A DNA stretch of 64,000 nucleotides from Escherichia coli 042 (GTDB taxonomy: Bacteria; Pseudomonadota; Gammaproteobacteria; Enterobacterales; Enterobacteriaceae). Numbering within the stretch: position 1 is the first letter of the stretch; each line of letters starts with the position of its first letter. Below are positions 11,377 to 28,665 of this stretch, one piece after another. The notes under the pieces are model-generated. The model was not told the origin of the DNA, made no database searches, and saw only the letters and a list, made by a program, of their open reading frames with translations. The stretch lies in the NCBI RefSeq assembly GCF_000027125.1, contig NC_017626.1. One strand, written 5' to 3'. The translations under genes and the position numbers were made by a program.

Positions 11377-12948
11377 ATGACATCTCCATCTTCGACAGCC
11401 GGAAAGCCCTGTGTGGAATGCGGCATTCCTGATCCATGTATTTTTGATGTTATTAGTGATTTTCCAGAGGCCGGCGAGAAACATTTCTGGTCAAAAGAAG
11501 GAGTGGCGCGTTTTAAGCTACTGGATGATGGTTCCGGATGTGATGGTATAATTACCATTACCTACCAGTGCGATAAAAGTGGAACACATGAGGCATGGTT
11601 AGAGGAAGAATCAGAAAATAATCATAAGATACTGCAACCTTTCGGAATACCTAATAAGGTCACTTTGGATGATAACTTGTCTGAAGGTGAAATAATTGCT
11701 ATGGGTACATTTCGAGTACCATGGGATTATTTGGGGGCAATATCCTCTCCACTTAAGAATCATTATGAACCTGCCCATTATTCAGTCAGAATTGACAGTT
11801 GTTACGAATGTGGCAATTATGTTGAAATTGATGTTTATCCTACAGTGGAAATTAGGTTTACTACAGGGTTCAGCTATGAGATTTCGTCATCAAAACAGAC
11901 GAGAACAGTAAAAGAGCGGCGTGACGAAAGAATAAAAGCCAGGGACGCAATGGAGAACACCAAGCCCAGGGATAAAAATAAACTCCGTAGCGGCTGGACA
12001 AATACCACTGCTGAGTTTGAGTGGATAAACAAGACTTCCCTGACTGTCGATTTTGGCGTAAAAATAGCTAATGTTGAACACACAAGTGAATATGAAAAAG
12101 AGATAAAAAAACTTCGACAAACAAAGCAACTGGAACAGATAGGAAGAATTGACTCTCTGGTCAAGAATGTCAATAAATATTTTGCGCCAGATCCTGACAA
12201 TAATAATGGTACGCGCAAATATGCATTGTTCAGTGCAAAAATAGAACCCGTTAAACTGGGTATATCGTATGCCTATCAATATACCGATATCCAGGATGGC
12301 CCCTGTCATTTTTATGGTTTGTTTGGTGCCCCATTTTTTGAAGCGTCGTTCAGATTCGATATTATTTCATTTATATGTGCATATTGTAAAGTCGAGTCAT
12401 TGGTCAACAGATGTCGTGAATATCTCCGTAAAAACGGAGCCAGTGTTGAATGCTATATCGAGATTTCAGCGGAGATTAATCTTGATCTTGGCGCAGTATA
12501 CGCTGAAAAGGATAAAAAATGGGAGTTTAATGTAAAGGAAAGTAACATCAAGCTCGGTTTAAAAGGTGTGGTGAGTGCGACGTTTGAGGCGAATGTTTTT
12601 GTTGTACAACTGACCGCCGAAGCGACTGCCTCTATAGAAGCGAAAGCTGGATTTGGATTTGATTCACATGATGACGGACTGGACCTAGCATTATTTCATG
12701 ACGGCATTAAAGGGAAGTTTGAATTTAAGATTGATGTGTCTCATGGTGAAGTTGATGAAAAAGGAAAGGGGAAGGAAAAGAGCGAAAAACCTGAGAAGAA
12801 AGATACCGTTGAGTGGCAGTTATGTGATCCTATGGAGGTAAAGGATTCACCATTACGGGTTAATTTATACGGTAAAGAACGCACTGTGGAGAAAAAAGTA
12901 ACACCGCCGAAGCCAGTGACAACGTGGACGATAGGTATGGATTATTAA
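11377..12948 (+). CDS. Candidate VgrG-delivered T6SS effector, family not recognised
   Basis: 523-aa AT-rich ORF immediately after vgrG and DUF4123; Cys-rich N-terminus (CVECGIPDPC), Lys/Glu-rich C-terminus; no GxSxG or HxKxxxxD motif seen. Confidence 0.45.
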   Translation: MTSPSSTAGKPCVECGIPDPCIFDVISDFPEAGEKHFWSKEGVARFKLLDDGSGCDGIITITYQCDKSGTHEAWLEEESENNHKILQPFGIPNKVTLDDNLSEGEIIAMGTFRVPWDYLGAISSPLKNHYEPAHYSVRIDSCYECGNYVEIDVYPTVEIRFTTGFSYEISSSKQTRTVKERRDERIKARDAMENTKPRDKNKLRSGWTNTTAEFEWINKTSLTVDFGVKIANVEHTSEYEKEIKKLRQTKQLEQIGRIDSLVKNVNKYFAPDPDNNNGTRKYALFSAKIEPVKLGISYAYQYTDIQDGPCHFYGLFGAPFFEASFRFDIISFICAYCKVESLVNRCREYLRKNGASVECYIEISAEINLDLGAVYAEKDKKWEFNVKESNIKLGLKGVVSATFEANVFVVQLTAEATASIEAKAGFGFDSHDDGLDLALFHDGIKGKFEFKIDVSHGEVDEKGKGKEKSEKPEKKDTVEWQLCDPMEVKDSPLRVNLYGKERTVEKKVTPPKPVTTWTIGMDY

Positions 12949-13014
12949 GTGATATTACAGAAATTAAAAGTGAACAGTATAATGAGTATTTTCCCCTTTT
13001 GAGAGAGAATAATT

Positions 13015-14025
13015 ATGAAGGCAAAACATTTAATATCGGTTATTTTACTGTCAGGAGTTGTTATGGGAACTGGATTTTGCTCTAACGATAACCAGCAAAA
13101 AATTCGCAGTAAGTTTAATATTGAAGAGTCATATTGTGCCATTAAGACTAATGGCGTCCTCGGGTTCAGTAACCGAAGAAGTGCCTGGCGGGCAAATGGT
13201 GATTCAACCGGGGCCATATCCAGCACCAATGCCATGATGCTGATGGCGAATGGAGAAAATGAAATCAGTCTGGAGATTGGGGCATTAGGATGGTTTTCTG
13301 ACAAGCCTGCCAGTATGGAAGAACGGGGGCGTTTTTTTCCAAAAGCAGGATGCAGCCTGGATTTGGTTCGTTTTATTAAACAGGAGGAAACGCTGCTTTC
13401 TTCAATAAAAGTGACCATCAACCAGCAGGGCATACCTGAAGCCCGGCCAGACAGCGTGCATCCCGTTATCCGGAAAGAGATTTTGGCTGAGCAGGCGGAG
13501 CCAGGATTTATTGATCCAGATTATTTTGATGAAACCTATTTCCCGAAAGGGATGAAGGTGTATCAGTTCACTCAAAAAGTTACCGTGACAGGGCTTCCTG
13601 AATGGGCCTGGACGCGGGCAACCCCCTATACCGGAAGCGACGAGCAGTTACGGAAGTTAAAAGCCGCCTATACCGAAATGGCAAGCATCATCAGTAGCCG
13701 GGACAGGGCACGTCTGAAAGCTTATAACAAAGAGGCGCTGAAGGCATGGTCAGCCACAACCGGTGACTCTGAGGATGACATATTACTCTCACTCTTCTCA
13801 AAAGATAATGTGGAGGGAGGGAAAGCCAGAATGCAGCCCATCAGGTGGGACGATTATGCCGTCCGGGTTATGAATGGTGGACGTATGGTGCAGCTATATA
13901 ATAAATCGAAACCAATATATTCCCCACTGACTTACCGTTTTACAGATGAAAGTGGTGAAGAGCGTATGGGGTATTACGCTCCGGTATTTTCGCTGATTGA
14001 TGGTCAGTTTATCCCTGTTACTTGA
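13015..14025 (+). CDS. Exported protein, candidate cognate immunity protein
   Basis: 336-aa ORF with N-terminal signal peptide and a Cys after the hydrophobic core (MGTGFC); sits directly downstream of the candidate effector. Confidence 0.4.
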   Translation: MKAKHLISVILLSGVVMGTGFCSNDNQQKIRSKFNIEESYCAIKTNGVLGFSNRRSAWRANGDSTGAISSTNAMMLMANGENEISLEIGALGWFSDKPASMEERGRFFPKAGCSLDLVRFIKQEETLLSSIKVTINQQGIPEARPDSVHPVIRKEILAEQAEPGFIDPDYFDETYFPKGMKVYQFTQKVTVTGLPEWAWTRATPYTGSDEQLRKLKAAYTEMASIISSRDRARLKAYNKEALKAWSATTGDSEDDILLSLFSKDNVEGGKARMQPIRWDDYAVRVMNGGRMVQLYNKSKPIYSPLTYRFTDESGEERMGYYAPVFSLIDGQFIPVT

Positions 14026-14098: not shown

Positions 14099-14334
14099 AA
14101 ATTTTTTGTCGCTGATATTCCAGACAGGAAAACAATATGCCTTTAGCTGCCAGATTAAACGACAAAGGTACCGGCACAGGGAAAGATCACGTAACGCTGC
14201 TTTTTTGTACTAAATAATTCGCATTTTATGTTTAAAATTTGAGATATTCCTCATTACCTGAGGCTGTTTTTTATTACTTATACATGATCAAATACTCCTT
14301 ACATAATTAAGGGGAACAAAATGGAACTTAAAAA

Positions 14335-15262
14335 TTGATGGAACATATTTCTGTTATTCCCGATTACAGACAAGCCTGGAAAGTGGAACATAAATTGTCG
14401 GATATTCTACTGTTGACTATTTGTGCCGTTATTTCGGGTGCAGAAGGTTGGGAAGATATAGAGGATTTTGGGGAAACACATCTCGATTTTTTAAAACAAT
14501 ACGGTGATTTTGAAAATGGTATTCCTGTTCACGATACCATCGCCAGAGTTGTATCCTGTATCAGTCCTGCAAAATTTCACGAGTGCTTTATTAACTGGAT
14601 GCGAGATTGCCATACTTCAGATGATAAAGACGTCATCGCAATTGATGGAAAAACGCTCCGGCACTCTTATGACAAGAGTCGCCGCAGGGGAGCGATTCAT
14701 GTCATTAGTGCGTTCTCAACAATGCACAGCCTGGTCATCGGACAGATCAAGACGGATGAGAAATCCAATGAGATTACAGCTATCCCAGAACTTCTTAACA
14801 TGCTGGATATTAAAGGAAAAATCATCACAACTGATGCGATGGGTTGCCAGAAAGATATTGCAGAGAAGATACAAAAACAGGGCGGTGATTATTTATTCGC
14901 TGTAAAAGGAAATCAGGGGCGGCTTAATAAAGCCTTTGAGGAAAAATTCCCACTGAAAGAATTAAATAATCCAGAGCATGACAGTTACGCAATGAGTGAA
15001 AAGAGTCACGGCAGAGAAGAAATCCGTCTTCATATTGTTTGCGATGTCCCTGATGAACTTATTGATTTCACGTTTGAATGGAAAGGACTGAAGAAATTAT
15101 GCGTGGCAGTCTCCTTTCGGTCCATAATAGCAGAACAAAAGAAAGAGCCAGAAATGACGGTCAGATATTATATCAGTTCTGCTGATTTAACCGCAGAGAA
15201 GTTCGCCACAGCAATCCGAAACCACTGGCACGTGGAGAATAAGCTGCACTGGCGTCTGGACG
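14335..15262 (+). CDS. ISAs1-family transposase, exon 1 (reading frame interrupted by the group II intron)
   Basis: Near-identical to the intact copy-B transposase up to ...HWRLD; one base fewer than copy B in the A-run near the start codon region. Confidence 0.8.
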
Positions 15263-17153
15263 GTGTGCCGCAGGAACACAAGATAGCTGCATAAGGATAC
15301 GCAGTTAGCTTTTGTATAAGCTCATAAAGAGATGGTGGAAGGCCCACCGGGATCGGCTGTCGGAAGCAGATTCCAAACCACTTCATGCTGCTGTGGTAAA
15401 GAGCCATGGTAGTGAGCGATGAAGTAAAGCGTGAGTGAAAACTCAGCAGGTAAGATACTCATGAGACGAGTGAACCCGAACCCATGTTGACGCGTCGTAA
15501 ACCAGAGACTGACATCAAAACCGAAGGGGCGTCCAGCCTTCGGGATAAGTCTGCGAGTGAATTCCGAATGCTGCGCAGACGGTGTCCGGCGTAAAGTGGG
15601 CGTGACGGAGTATCAGGCTCTTCCTGGGAACTGCGGGAACCTGTCGTTGTGATGATAAGGGAGAAATGCAAGTCACTGAATTGGCGAGCATGAAAGTACC
15701 GATGCACAGCACAGGGACGGAGCCGTTCGTAGTAGTGATGAAGCTTCTGTAATGGAGGTGGAGCGAAGGGGCGGCATCAGACAGTCTTTGGACAGTGTTC
15801 AACTGAACATGTTCAGGAGGAGACAATGACAAAGACAAAAGCGTTTAACATTGATAAGTCACTGGTGGTCAGCGCGTACAGGCGAGTGAAGACCAGTGCA
15901 GGCGCGGCGGGAATTGATAAGCAATCGCTGGCGGACTTTGATAAACGGTTAGTTGATAATCTGTACAAAATCTGGAACCGACTTTCTTCAGGAAGTTATT
16001 TCCCACCGGCAGTGAAAGCGGTGGCAATTCCGAAGAAATTGGGTGGAGAGAGAATTCTGGGTATCCCGACAGTCAGCGATCGTATCGCGCAGACGGTGGT
16101 AAAACTGGCCTTTGAGCCACAGGTTGAGCCACATTTTCTGGCAGACTCTTACGGCTACAGACCGAATAAATCGGCACTGGATGCTATAGGGGTAACGCGT
16201 AAGCGTTGCTGGTATTACGACTGGGTACTGGAATTTGACATCAAAGGGCTGTTCGATAACATCCCGCACGAACTGATAATGAAAGCCGTGGACAAACACA
16301 ATCCGGCCCGGTGGGTAAAATTGTATATACAGCGGTGGCTGACAGCGCCGATGGTGATGTCAGACGGAGAAGTCAGAGCACGAACAATGGGAACGCCGCA
16401 GGGAGGTGTCATAAGTCCGTTGCTGGCAAACCTGTTCATGCATTATGTGTTTGATAAATGGCTGGCAAAATATTATCCGAAAGTGCCGTGGTATCGATAT
16501 GCTGATGATGGCATTTTGCATTGTCACAGCGAAGCAGAAGCGACTGAAATGCGAGAAGTATTACGCAAAAGATTTAGCGAATGCGGACTGGAAATGCATC
16601 CGGAGAAAACGCGAGTTATCTACTGCAAAGATGGAAGCCGGAAGGGTGATTATGAACATACCATGTTCGACTTTCTGGGGTACACATTCAGGCGACGCGT
16701 AGTAAAGAACGTTAAGCGAAACAGTCTGTTTGTAAGTTTTACCCCCGCAGCGAGCAAATCAGCGCTAAAGGCAATGCGTCGGGAAATCAAAGCGACAGGG
16801 ATAAGGAAAAGAGTGGATTTAAGCATTGAGCAGATAGCGAAATGGATAAATCCAAAACTGAATGGCTGGATAAATTATTACGGGCGATATACCTGTTCGG
16901 AATTATACAGCGTGTTCAGATATATCAATAAAGCACTGGTGAGGTGGGGGCGTAAGAAATATAAAATGCTCAGCCGATACAAGACAAGAGCCTCAAAATT
17001 TCTGGAAGAAATGGCGAAGCGAAGTCCACAGTTGTTTGCCCACTGGCGTCTGAAGATGAGAGGCGGACTTGTTTGATGGGAGCGGTATGAGCCGAGAGGT
17101 TCACGTACCGTTCTGCGAGAGGCTGCGGGGGAGGTTCCTGCGGCCTACTCACC
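15263..17153 (+). mobile_element. Group II intron, same orientation as the host transposase gene
   Basis: Exactly fills the gap between the copy-A junction CTGGACG|TGGTAATG and the uninterrupted copy B; starts GTGTG; encodes an RT/maturase; a domain V-like hairpin (GAGCCGAGAGGTTCACGTACCGTTC) lies near the 3' end. Confidence 0.8.
15826..17076 (+). CDS. Group II intron-encoded reverse transcriptase/maturase
   Basis: 416-aa ORF with RT motifs ([10 protein letters not shown], the YADD box in [12 protein letters not shown]) and a C-terminal maturase-like region. Confidence 0.9.
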
Positions 17154-17347
17154 TGGTAATGAATGAAGACGACTGCAAAATAAGAAGAGGAAATGCAGCA
17201 GAATTATTTTCAGGGATACGGCACATCGCTATTAATATTTTGACGAATGATAAGGTATTCAAGGCAGGGTTAAGACGTAAGATGCGAAAAGCAGCCATGG
17301 ACAGAAACTATCTGGCGTCAGTCCTTGCGGGGTGCGGGCTTTCGTAA
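17154..17347 (+). CDS. ISAs1-family transposase, exon 2 (C-terminal segment)
   Basis: Translation [64 protein letters not shown] matches the C-terminus of copy B. Confidence 0.75.
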
Positions 17348-17378
17348 TCTTTCCCTGGATGTGAAAAGCAGCTGCGGA

Positions 17379-18669
17379 CAGGGAAAGATCATCAGAAGTA
17401 CACTTTTTGTACTAAACAATTCGCATTTTATGTTTAAAAATTGAGATATTCCTCATTACCTGAAGCTGTTTTTTATTGCTTATACATGATCAAATACTCC
17501 TTACATAATTAAGGAGAACAAAATGGAACTTAAAAAATTGATGGAGCATATTTCTATTATCCCCGATTACAGACAAGCCTGGAAAGTGGAACATAAATTA
17601 TCGGATATTCTACTGTTGACTATTTGTGCCGTTATTTCTGGTGCAGAAGGTTGGGAAGATATAGAGGATTTTGGGGAAACACATCTCGATTTTTTGAAGC
17701 AATATGGTGATTTTGATAATGGTATTCCTGTTCACGATACCATTGCCAGAGTTGTATCCTGTATCAGTCCTGCAAAATTTCACGAGTGCTTTATTAACTG
17801 GATGCGTGACTGCCATTCTTCAGATGATAAAGACGTCATTGCAATTGATGGAAAAACGCTCCGACACTCTTATGACAAGAGTCGCCGCAGGGGAGCGATT
17901 CATGTCATTAGTGCGTTCTCAACAATGCACAGCCTGGTCATCGGACAGATCAGGACGGATGAGAAATCTAATGAGATTACAGCTATCCCTGAACTTATTA
18001 ACATGCTGGATATTAAAGGAAAAATCATCACAACTGATGCGATGGGTTGCCAGAAAGATATTGCAGAGAAGATACAAAAACAGGGAGGTGATTATTTATT
18101 CGCTGTAAAAGGAAACCAGGGGCGGCTAAATAAAGCCTTCGAGGAAAAATTTCTGCTGAAAGAATTAAATAATCCAGAGCATGACAGTTACGCAATTAGT
18201 GAAAAGAGTCACGGCAGAGAAGAAATCCGTCTTCACATTGTTTGCGATGTCCCTGATGAACTTATTGATTTCACGTTTGAATGGAAAGGTCTGAAGAAAT
18301 TATGCGTGGCAGTCTCCTTTCGGTCAATAATAGCAGAACAAAAGAAAGAGCCCCAAATGACGGTCAGATATTATATCAGTTCTGCTGATTTAACCGCAGA
18401 GAAGTTCGCCACAGCAATCCGAAACCACTGGCACGTGGAGAATAAGCTGCACTGGCGTCTGGACGTGGTAATGAATGAAGACGACTGCAAAATAAGAAGA
18501 GGAAACGCAGCAGAATTATTTTCAGGGATACGGCACATTGCTATTAATATTTTGACGAATGATAAGGTATTCAAGGCAGGGTTAAGACGTAAGATGCGAA
18601 AAGCAGCCATGGACAGAAACTACCTGGCGTCAGTCCTTGCGGGGAGCGGGCTTTCGTAATCTTGCCCTG
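17379..18669 (+). mobile_element. ISAs1-family (H-repeat) insertion sequence, copy B (intact)
   Basis: Same terminal inverted repeats as copy A; single uninterrupted transposase ORF. Confidence 0.8.
17523..18659 (+). CDS. ISAs1-family (H-repeat-associated) transposase
   Basis: 378-aa ORF; recognised H-repeat protein family. Confidence 0.9.
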
Positions 18670-18778
18670 GTACAGTAAACAAACGAAAGTTGTTATTTCA
18701 ATGGTCAGGGCAAGAGCATGAAGTGTTTACTACACACTATGCTCTTGTCCTGGAGTCAGGTCTTGTTTGGAGGGATAA

Positions 18779-19889: not shown

Positions 19890-20105
19890 CGTAATTTTGA
19901 AAATGGTAATCCTGTTCACGGCACCATAATTAGAGTTATGTCTTGTATCCGTTCAGTATAATTTCACGAATGCTTTATTAACTGGATGCGAGATTGCCAT
20001 TCATCAAATGATAAAGACGTCATCGCAATTGATGGAAAAGCGCTTCCACACTCCTATGATAAAAGTGGTCGCAGGGGAGCGGGCTTTCGTAGTCTTAGCC
20101 CGACT
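19890..20105 (+). mobile_element. Internally deleted ISAs1-family remnant
   Basis: Transposase codons about 60-120 (ENGNPVHGTI...[24 protein letters not shown]) fused directly to the IS right end CGGGCTTTCGTAGTCTTAGCCCG. Confidence 0.6.
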
Positions 20106-24841: not shown

Positions 24842-24980
<139 letters not shown>

Positions 24981-26810: not shown

Positions 26811-27569
26811 ATGTCCTTCATGTCTTCGTTCTTTCACGGCAGATTTCTGCATCCAGGCGTGTTTTCGTTATGCGTTTTGCTCCCTTTACTCGCCAGCGCC
26901 ACCACATCACATATCTCTTTCAGCTACGCCGCCCGCCAGCGGATGCAAAACCGTGCGCGTTTATTAAAACAGTACCAAACCCATCTGAAAAAACAGGCCA
27001 GCTATATTGTGGAAGGCAATGCCGAAAGCAGAAAGGCGCTGCGCCAGCACAACCGCGAACAGATAAAACAGCATCCAGAATGGTTTCCTGCGCCGCTCAA
27101 GGCGAGTGACAGACGCTGGCAGGCGCTGGCGGAGAACAACCATTTCTTAAGCAGCGACCATCTGCACAACATCACCGAAGTGGCGATTCACCGCCTGGAG
27201 CAGCAGCTTGGTAAGCCTTACGTCTGGGGCGGCACGCGGCCCGATCAAGGCTTCGACTGTAGCGGGTTGGTTTTTTATGCCTACAACAAGATCCTCGAGG
27301 CGAAGCTCCCGCGCACGGCCAATGAGATGTATCACTACCATCGGGCAACGATTGTGGCGAATAACGACCTGCGCCGGGGAGATTTGCTGTTTTTCCATAT
27401 TCACAGCCGTGAGATTGCCGATCATATGGGCGTGTATCTGGGAGACGGTCAGTTTATCGAGTCGCCGCGCACCGGGGAAACCATTCGGGTAAGTCGGTTA
27501 GCTGAACCTTTCTGGCAGGATCATTTTTTAGGCGCGCGCAGGATTTTGACGGAAGAGACGATTTTGTAG
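26811..27569 (+). CDS. yafL: NlpC/P60-family peptidoglycan peptidase lipoprotein YafL
   Basis: 252-aa ORF with the NlpC/P60 catalytic Cys context (GFDCSGLVFYAY) and His (HMGVYLGDGQFIESP). Confidence 0.85.
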   Translation: MSFMSSFFHGRFLHPGVFSLCVLLPLLASATTSHISFSYAARQRMQNRARLLKQYQTHLKKQASYIVEGNAESRKALRQHNREQIKQHPEWFPAPLKASDRRWQALAENNHFLSSDHLHNITEVAIHRLEQQLGKPYVWGGTRPDQGFDCSGLVFYAYNKILEAKLPRTANEMYHYHRATIVANNDLRRGDLLFFHIHSREIADHMGVYLGDGQFIESPRTGETIRVSRLAEPFWQDHFLGARRILTEETIL

Positions 27570-27655
27570 GACGGATAAGGCGTTCACGCCGCATCCGGCA
27601 ATAGTGCACCGATGCCTGATGCGACGCTGCCGCGTCTTATCATGCCTACGAGTCT
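27568..27655. repeat. REP elements
   Basis: GGATAAGGCGTTCACGCCGCATCCGGCA ... TGCCTGATGCGACGCTGCCGCGTCTTATCATGCCTAC. Confidence 0.8.
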
Positions 27656-28247: not shown

Positions 28248-28665
28248 GCGCGGATGCCTGATGCGACGCAGGCGCGTCTTATCATGCCTACAAACTTGTG
28301 CCGGATCGGTGGGCCGGATAAGGCGTTCACACCGCATCCGGCAATTGTGCACCGGTGCCTGATGCGACGCTGGCGCGTCTTATCATGCCTACAAACCTGT
28401 GCCGGATCGGTGGGCCGGATAAGGCGTTCACACCGCATCCGGTAATTGTGCACCGGTGCCTGATGCGACGCTGGCGCGTCTTATCATGCCTACAAACCTG
28501 TGCCGGATCGGTGGGCTGGATAAGGCGTTCACACCGCATCCGGCAATTGTGCGCAGATGCCTGATGCGACGCTGACGCGTCTTATCATGCCTACAAACTT
28601 GTGCCGGATCGGTAGGCCGGATAAGGCGTTCACGCCGCATCCGGCAATTGTGCACCGATGCCGGA
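28248..28665. repeat. BIME/REP array (about four ~100-bp units) directly downstream of rayT
   Basis: Unit TGCCTGATGCGACGCTGGCGCGTCTTATCATGCCTACAAACCTGTGCCGGATCGGTGGGCCGGATAAGGCGTTCACACCGCATCCGG repeats with about 100-bp period. Confidence 0.85.

Follow-up and report, generated by a model that had tools for sequence, protein, structure and literature searches.

A class D group II intron, very probably E.c.I2, in the transposase gene of an ISEc1-type element of Escherichia coli 042, beside an intron-less copy of the same element

Introduction

The first group II introns of E. coli mobile DNA, including one in the Rhs H-repeat ORF, were reportedly described by Ferat, Le Gouar and Michel (1994) and by Knoop and Brennicke (1994), and E. 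coli group II introns are said to have been surveyed across the ECOR collection by Dai and Zimmerly (2002). A full-text literature search for 'H-repeat' together with group II intron retrieved nothing. Under the naming rule quoted in PMC3552965, an intron takes the name of a database reference if more than 95% of their nucleotides agree. Among the E. coli introns, E.c.I2-1 of strain UMN026 was listed as a class D intron of 1,891 bp 'in a Rhs region' (NC_011751:269264-271154, + strand), full-length and 99% identical to the database reference (Leclercq and Cordaux, 2012; PMC3522654). E.c.I2 specifically targets the Rhs IS (= ISEc1-5) (PMC3522654), and homing into IS transposase genes is shared with E.c.I4 and E.c.I3, whose hosts are the IS629/IS911/IS3 family and IS679, respectively (PMC3522654).

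The model of the class D (IIB3) introns is RmInt1 (Sr.me.I1) of Sinorhizobium meliloti, an element of about 1.9 kb that lies in sense orientation in the transposase gene of ISRm2011-2 and encodes a protein with reverse transcriptase (RT) and X domains and without D/En domains. Class D introns carry a class-specific C-terminal extension after domain X (PMC3552965). In RmInt1, which is functional, the 3′ end deviates from the conserved AY (PMC4238363), exon ligation in vivo was measured at 0.07% (PMC3035460), and the intron is held by its authors to limit the spread of the host IS (PMC3035460, PMC4238363). Splicing efficiency, lagging-strand targeting and interaction with DnaN have been shown for RmInt1 only. 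A published table of group II intron terminal pairs lists E.c.I2 together with RmInt1 (PMC8283771).

In this study, we report the analysis of an insert in an ISEc1-type element of E. coli 042, with regard to its limits, its anatomy, its distribution among E. coli genomes and its probable effect on the host IS.

Results and Discussion

The window, that is, the whole stretch of DNA that was analysed, comprises 64,000 nucleotides of contig NC_017626.1 (assembly GCF_000027125.1), and the IS and intron features for which coordinates are given below lie on its + strand. It covers an E. coli chromosomal locus with yafV, ivy, fadE, lpcA and dinB downstream and a type VI secretion cluster upstream. Two IS of ISEc1 type (ISAs1 family, the Rhs 'H-repeat') are arranged head to tail at the distal end of this type VI secretion/effector island, adjoining yafV: copy A at 14176-17359 and copy B at 17378-18673. 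Both copies are bounded by the inverted repeats CAGGGAAAGAT and ATCTTTCCCTG, the left one of copy A being located at 14176-14186. Copy B is intact and intron-less; its 378-aa transposase (17523-18659) matches NF033564 (ISAs1 transposase) with 413.9 bits and is annotated by PGAP as 'ISAs1-like element ISEc1 family transposase'. In copy A, PGAP places an ltrA gene between two ISAs1 pseudogene halves, the 3′ half being labelled 'missing N-terminus'. The left part of copy A, which constitutes the 5′ exon (14176-15262), is 96% identical to copy B and contains an ORF at 14335-15294, while the right part, the 3′ exon (17154-17359), comprises the last 64 transposase codons and the right inverted repeat. 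A third, degraded ISEc1 fragment adjoins yafV at 19890-20090 (83% match to query nucleotides 345-545 of copy A); it is devoid of the homing site and is annotated by PGAP as an ISAs1 pseudogene with an internal stop.

The insert of copy A extends from 15263 to 17153 (1,891 nt). When it was removed, copy A aligned colinearly with copy B (1247 of 1299 positions, 96%), and around the junction the two copies were identical over about 115 nt, with neither gaps nor mismatches in approximately 74 nt upstream and 41 nt downstream. At the 5′ junction of copy A, GCTGCACTGGCGTCTGGACG is followed by GTGTGCC, and at the 3′ junction CTACTCACC is followed by TGGTAATGAATG, the first bases after the insert being TGGTAATG. 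The vacant site of copy B reads CTGGACG directly followed by TGGTAATG, with the junction between 18465 and 18466, or, in its longer form, GCTGCACTGGCGTCTGGACG directly followed by TGGTAATGAATG. Since the bases flanking each boundary differ, the boundaries cannot slide and the limits 15263 and 17153 are unambiguous. An alternative 3′ boundary, with an intron ending in ...CAC that would fit the AY consensus, was rejected given that it leaves a spare C in the ligated exons with respect to the empty site. The 30-nt sequence of the empty site occurs only once in the window and in none of 100 shuffles.

A preliminary description of this DNA, made from the letters alone, had proposed a sense-oriented group II intron in an ISAs1-family transposase gene with an intact empty-site sister downstream, and this held on the points tested: the insert had been described correctly in its coordinates, its GTGTG start, its 416-aa ORF and the hairpin close to its 3′ end, and the base-for-base correspondence of the junctions with copy B was borne out by the alignment. 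Two details of it have to be corrected. The insertion had been placed exactly at a codon junction, while it interrupts codon 315 (G/TG, Val) in phase 1, between the first and second bases; and it had been called in-frame, while its length of 1,891 nt leaves a remainder of 1 when divided by three.

The sequence features identify the segment 15263-17153 as a complete bacterial group II intron that reads in the same direction as the transposase and is probably of class D (IIB3-like), the class to which E.c.I2 is assigned in PMC3522654. Its limits are given by the junctions against copy B, and its termini are a 5′ GUGUG and a 3′ CC. The GUGUG at 15263-15267 corresponds to the conserved GUGYG and is located directly behind the exon junction set by copy B. 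Rfam matches were taken at the gathering threshold. The conserved part of domain I (15334-15451) matched RF01999 (group-II-D1D4-2) over the full model, positions 1-118, with 105.5 bits (E = 1e-20). The covariance-model search for domains V and VI that the preliminary description had suggested gave a match to RF00029 (Intron_gpII) at 17078-17153 with 58.3 bits (E = 7e-9), above the gathering score of 40. According to the RF00029 alignment, the 34-nt catalytic hairpin of domain V spans 17080-17113 and contains the AGC triad (17081-17083) and a GAGA tetraloop, and it was also recognized by the D5 model RF04356 (37.4 bits). In the same alignment domain VI occupies 17116-17151, and the predicted branch point is A17147, the 7th nucleotide from the 3′ splice site, in a bulged UA.

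IBS1 (CUGGACG, 15256-15262) consists of the 7 nt that end the 5′ exon and is complementary to an EBS1 (CGUCCAG, 15530-15536) that is found in the terminal loop of a hairpin with the stem CCGAAGG...CCUUCGG. All seven pairs are of Watson-Crick type, and this is the sole perfect 7-mer complement within the first 600 nt of the intron. For the EBS2-IBS2 pairing, complementarity and an alignment of three introns yielded several short overlapping candidates, which are ambiguous because the exon repeats CUGG (twice). No EBS3 was found. It must be noted that the intron ends in ...CUCACC, so that the conserved 3′ AY is replaced by CC. As RmInt1 shows the same deviation (PMC4238363), this end represents a known variant of the subclass and is not evidence against membership.

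The intron-encoded protein (15826-17076) has 416 aa and is preceded by an AGGAGG Shine-Dalgarno sequence 8 nt upstream of its ORF. It consists of an RT domain (Pfam RVT_1, residues 68-288, 2.7e-39) with an intact YADD motif and a maturase X domain (GIIM, residues 314-388, 7.3e-16), and it matches NCBIfam TIGR04416 with 412 bits against a cutoff of 300. Pfam returned only RVT_1 and GIIM, with no HNH match or other sign of a DNA-binding/endonuclease domain. The protein ends 28 aa after GIIM in a short C-terminal tail, which aligns with REPALFAHWRLLYRATA of a Rhizobium intron-encoded protein of 52% identity. The exact protein sequence is present on at least 1,000 contigs, in all cases under the name of group II intron RT/maturase.

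With high confidence, the insert can be assigned to the already catalogued E. coli intron E.c.I2, the name being given by length, coordinates, host element and context. E.c.I2-1 of UMN026 and the window intron have in common the length of 1,891 nt, ISEc1 as host and the Rhs/T6SS context, and both are of class D without an En domain, with no difference seen in these traits. In addition, the window intron is 100% identical to the copy of strain 118UI, which shows the same gene order and whose coordinates (269263-271153) are within 1 bp of those of E.c.I2-1. The element is already known, catalogued and routinely annotated, and nothing in the window itself is new. The consequences for genome annotation are therefore small, considering that the NCBI pipeline already calls ltrA.

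The full-length intron was found at 99% identity or more in 172 of 5,426 complete E. coli genomes (about 3%), and 179 records covered at least 80% of the 4.6-kb block formed by copy A, the intron and copy B. The yafV-adjacent locus was the same in four sampled RefSeq genomes and in nine of the ten places listed by an exact-protein look-up. The copy B homing site, 1.3 kb downstream of the intron and in the same orientation, was empty in every carrier genome sampled. As the number of records with the block (179) is so close to that of records with the intron (172), almost all copies are, as far as these comparisons go, one orthologous insertion that has been vertically inherited. Its mobility appears to be low, because the perfect site in copy B is always empty and nearly all copies occupy one locus. 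In copy number it differs from the class A intron E.c.I4, which reaches up to 15 copies per genome, while E.c.I2 is single-copy in nearly all carriers. The essentially single locus, the similar counts of block and intron and the ever-empty neighbouring site would also suit an element that is intact but fixed, a vertically inherited and immobile relic, of which any further copy would be due to homologous recombination or gene conversion from the yafV locus.

In this regard, two strains are informative. M11957 and M7424 carry a second copy of the intron, identical at 1891 of 1891 positions, at precisely the corresponding position of another ISEc1, whose exons are 97.1% and 98.0% identical to those of copy A. 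This second locus lies between nfrB and cusS, in a PAAR/HNH-toxin region. In the near-identical sister strain M00057 it contains two ISEc1 copies, both without the intron; in M11957, the intron takes the place of the 2,151 bp that separate the two homing sites. The sequences on either side of the second copy in M11957 are 100% identical to the ISEc1 copies of M00057 and differ by 2-3% from copy A.

The second identical copy points to recent mobility, and the arrangement is one that retrohoming would produce if recombination between the two IS (or IS::intron) copies took place before or after it. Recombination has acted at this locus, as the 2,151-bp deletion between two ISEc1 copies indicates, and to that extent a relic copied from the yafV locus would be in agreement with it. 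However, the M11957 intron is 100% identical to the one at the yafV locus, yet it is surrounded by exons of the M00057 type, and no co-converted tract of donor exon is visible. This is what retrohoming predicts and would favour it over gene conversion, although all copies share the same sequence over approximately 115 nt around the site, which makes the comparison a weak test. Moreover, the protein ORF, the YADD motif, the domain V triad, the branch-point A and EBS1 are all intact, contrary to what an immobile relic would lead one to expect. An immobile relic is, accordingly, considered unlikely. We tentatively interpret the difference between M00057 and M11957/M7424 as a natural and very recent retrohoming of E.c.I2 that went along with the loss of a toxin-immunity segment through an intron- or IS-mediated deletion, a scenario that we regard as a serious possibility while stopping short of calling it probable. 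If it is true, gut E. coli would show directly, in nature, a group II intron that both moves and reshapes an Rhs/PAAR effector locus, and it would follow that E.c.I2 is active in vivo even though most carriers have a single copy.

With respect to the transposase gene, the preliminary description had suggested that splicing could restore it. The part of this that concerns the junction stands: unspliced read-through of copy A meets a stop 10 codons into the intron (15292-15294), while exact splicing would re-join an open frame of 372 codons with 9 substitutions relative to copy B. The part that concerns the whole gene is not clearly valid, given that the normal start codon of copy A leads to an ORF of only 5 codons. 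A 1-bp deletion in the A-run of codons 4-6 (ATG GAA CTT AAA AAT TGA) brings the frame from the first ATG (14321) to a TGA at 14336-14338, and the long frame can begin only at the ATG of codon 7 (14338), which overlaps that TGA. PGAP flags the 5′ half of copy A as a pseudogene, with 'internal stop' in one record.

The sense orientation, the exact junction and the long, little-altered spliced frame could be taken to mean that the intron is a benign passenger, spliced so efficiently that copy A yields a working ISEc1 transposase. We find this improbable, more so than the immobile relic, since the canonical start is closed by the deletion, copy A is treated as a pseudogene by PGAP, a 3′ splice site ending in CC goes with low splicing fidelity in RmInt1 (PMC4238363), and the exon ligation of that intron, which is likewise inside an IS transposase gene, is as low as 0.07% in vivo (PMC3035460). 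By analogy with RmInt1, the intron would more probably silence copy A than leave it functional.

That the insert is an RT element of another kind (a retron, a DRT defence RT or the like) lying in the IS by chance has next to no probability, as the weak sub-threshold NCBIfam matches to Drt3a, Drt2 and retron RTs, which are expected for any RT domain, score far below their cutoffs against 412 bits over a cutoff of 300 for TIGR04416, and the insert shows several features that are specific to group II introns, namely GIIM, the Rfam domain I and V/VI matches, GUGUG, the EBS1-IBS1 pairing and the exact empty site.

With its anatomy, exact junctions, empty site, conservation across genomes and second same-site copy all observed directly, the element is very probably the known mobile intron E.c.I2 of class D (IIB3-type, RmInt1-like), which has retrohomed into a specific site of the ISEc1 transposase gene. 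For splicing, priming and the effect on the IS, we infer the following course. The intron would be carried on the transcript of the IS, and the RT/maturase, translated from its own Shine-Dalgarno sequence, would bind the intron RNA. The ribozyme would then excise as a lariat through A17147, with the 5′ exon held by the pairing of EBS1 with IBS1. The resulting ribonucleoprotein would reverse-splice into the same 14-30-nt sequence of intron-less ISEc1 copies, and cDNA synthesis would presumably start from nascent strands of the replication fork, as demonstrated for RmInt1; this mode of priming is presumed because the intron-encoded protein is without an endonuclease domain. Splicing would re-join the transposase ORF exactly at the junction, and the main effect of the intron, if RmInt1 is a guide, would probably be that the host IS stays mostly silent instead of being expressed normally.

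With a group II intron nested in an IS and its empty homing site alongside, the locus is a clean textbook example. It could also serve as a natural system for examining whether introns of class D hold back the activity of the IS that they occupy, as has been proposed for RmInt1, and M00057 together with M11957/M7424 forms a natural before-and-after pair for the study of mobility.

Among the relatives, RmInt1 resembles E.c.I2 in the protein with RT and X and without D/En domains, in the length of about 1.9 kb, in the sense orientation within an IS transposase gene and in the 3′ end CC instead of AY. It differs in the family of the host IS and in the target sequence; in addition, the first base of the 3′ exon of E.c.I2 is U, so that no CCCC run is formed across the 3′ splice site, unlike in RmInt1. 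A Medicago-associated Rhizobium plasmid intron encodes a protein with 52% identity over 413 aa and the same tail, P.LFAHWRL. Its homologous EBS1 loop reads CUUCGU and is complementary to the tail of its own 5′ exon, ACGAGG, which corresponds to the co-variation expected between EBS1 and its target.

Within E. coli, strain 13E0780 (and also L006) carries an intron with 72% nucleotide identity over 70% of E.c.I2. It is probably E.c.I9 (of ATCC 8739), a class D intron that targets the Rhs IS 'at another position' (PMC3522654). Like E.c.I2, it lies inside an ISEc1-type element in an Rhs region. Unlike E.c.I2, it is inserted near the left IS end and not in the region of the transposase C-terminus, it ends in ...CUCAC in agreement with the AY consensus, and its intron-encoded protein has 440 aa. 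The loop of the 13E0780 intron that is homologous to EBS1, UGAUGAU, suits the canonical left end of ISEc1, AUCAUCA, better than the actual exon. Finally, a relic of about 100 bp, 86% identical to nucleotides 54-156 of the intron, is present in approximately 2,000 E. coli genomes, and these relics fit the E.c.I9 fragments of PMC3522654.

A second copy of E.c.I2 between nfrB and cusS

In E. coli strains M11957 and M7424, a second copy of the class D group II intron E.c.I2 was found between nfrB and cusS, where it occupies the same homing site within the transposase gene of a different ISEc1 element. In both strains it is 100% identical to the first copy; in M11957 it lies at about 1188568-1190458 of NZ_CP061337.1, on the minus strand. 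When M11957 was compared with its near-identical sister strain M00057, the intron was seen to stand in place of 2,151 bp lying between two tandem ISEc1 homing sites. Within this segment M00057 carries a small hypothetical gene alongside an immunity-like gene of the SUKH-3 type. The comparison of both sequences suggests that the arrangement in M11957 may have arisen by recent retrohoming together with a recombination-mediated deletion.

With respect to replication, we infer from the K-12 map that, in the clockwise replichore, lagging-strand synthesis uses the sense strand of the intron in the window (15263-17153, plus strand) as its template. RmInt1, the model class D intron of Sinorhizobium meliloti, prefers this orientation. 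On the same map the second copy in M11957, which is on the opposite strand, would belong to the same replichore.

The host elements and their surroundings

Copy A, the ISEc1 element hosting the intron in the window, lacks 1 bp of the A-run right behind the start codon (14321-14340; AAAAA vs. AAAAAA in copy B, the intron-less ISEc1), giving rise to the reading ATG GAA CTT AAA AAT TGA. This TGA overlaps the next in-frame ATG (TGATG). In the ISEc1 element hosting the second copy in M11957 the A-run is intact, and an internal stop is found at another position according to the PGAP annotation.

Directly upstream of copy A (11377-14025 and beyond), a T6SS effector module ends with VgrG, a DUF4123 adaptor and hypothetical proteins of 523 aa and 320/336 aa; the intron-bearing element is at the distal edge of this island. 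The sequence downstream of copy B encodes a hypothetical protein of 167 aa and a DUF2859 "integrating conjugative element protein"; it also contains a degraded fragment of a third ISEc1 (19890-20090), which abuts yafV.

Disrupted and related introns

In strain SCU-105 (NZ_CP051738.1, 4077775-4081001), E.c.I2 is interrupted by an IS3-family insertion, the match consisting of two pieces with an annotated IS3 transposase inside. In E. coli 13E0780 (NZ_CP020106.1, 2872651-2878964), an ISEc1-like element in an Rhs region adjoining pptA carries, close to its left end, a class D relative of E.c.I2; this intron shares 72% identity with E.c.I2, has a 440-aa intron-encoded protein and is probably E.c.I9. 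The loop at its EBS1 position (UGAUGAU) fits the canonical ISEc1 left end (AUCAUCA) better than the exon actually adjacent to it. In addition, about 2,000 of the 5,426 complete E. coli genomes contain an unannotated relic of ~100 bp, 85-86% identical to intron nucleotides 54-156; these relics presumably correspond to the E.c.I9 fragments of 159 and 193 bp listed by Leclercq and Cordaux (2012; PMC3522654).

Other repeats in the window

Six Rfam matches to naRNA4 (RF02564; 72-80 bits), which are REP/BIME-type repeats, were identified in the window at 24846-24923, 27569-27646, 28312-28591 (three copies) and 51083-51159. The three tandem copies lie close to rayT, which in matching genomes encodes the REP-associated tyrosine transposase.
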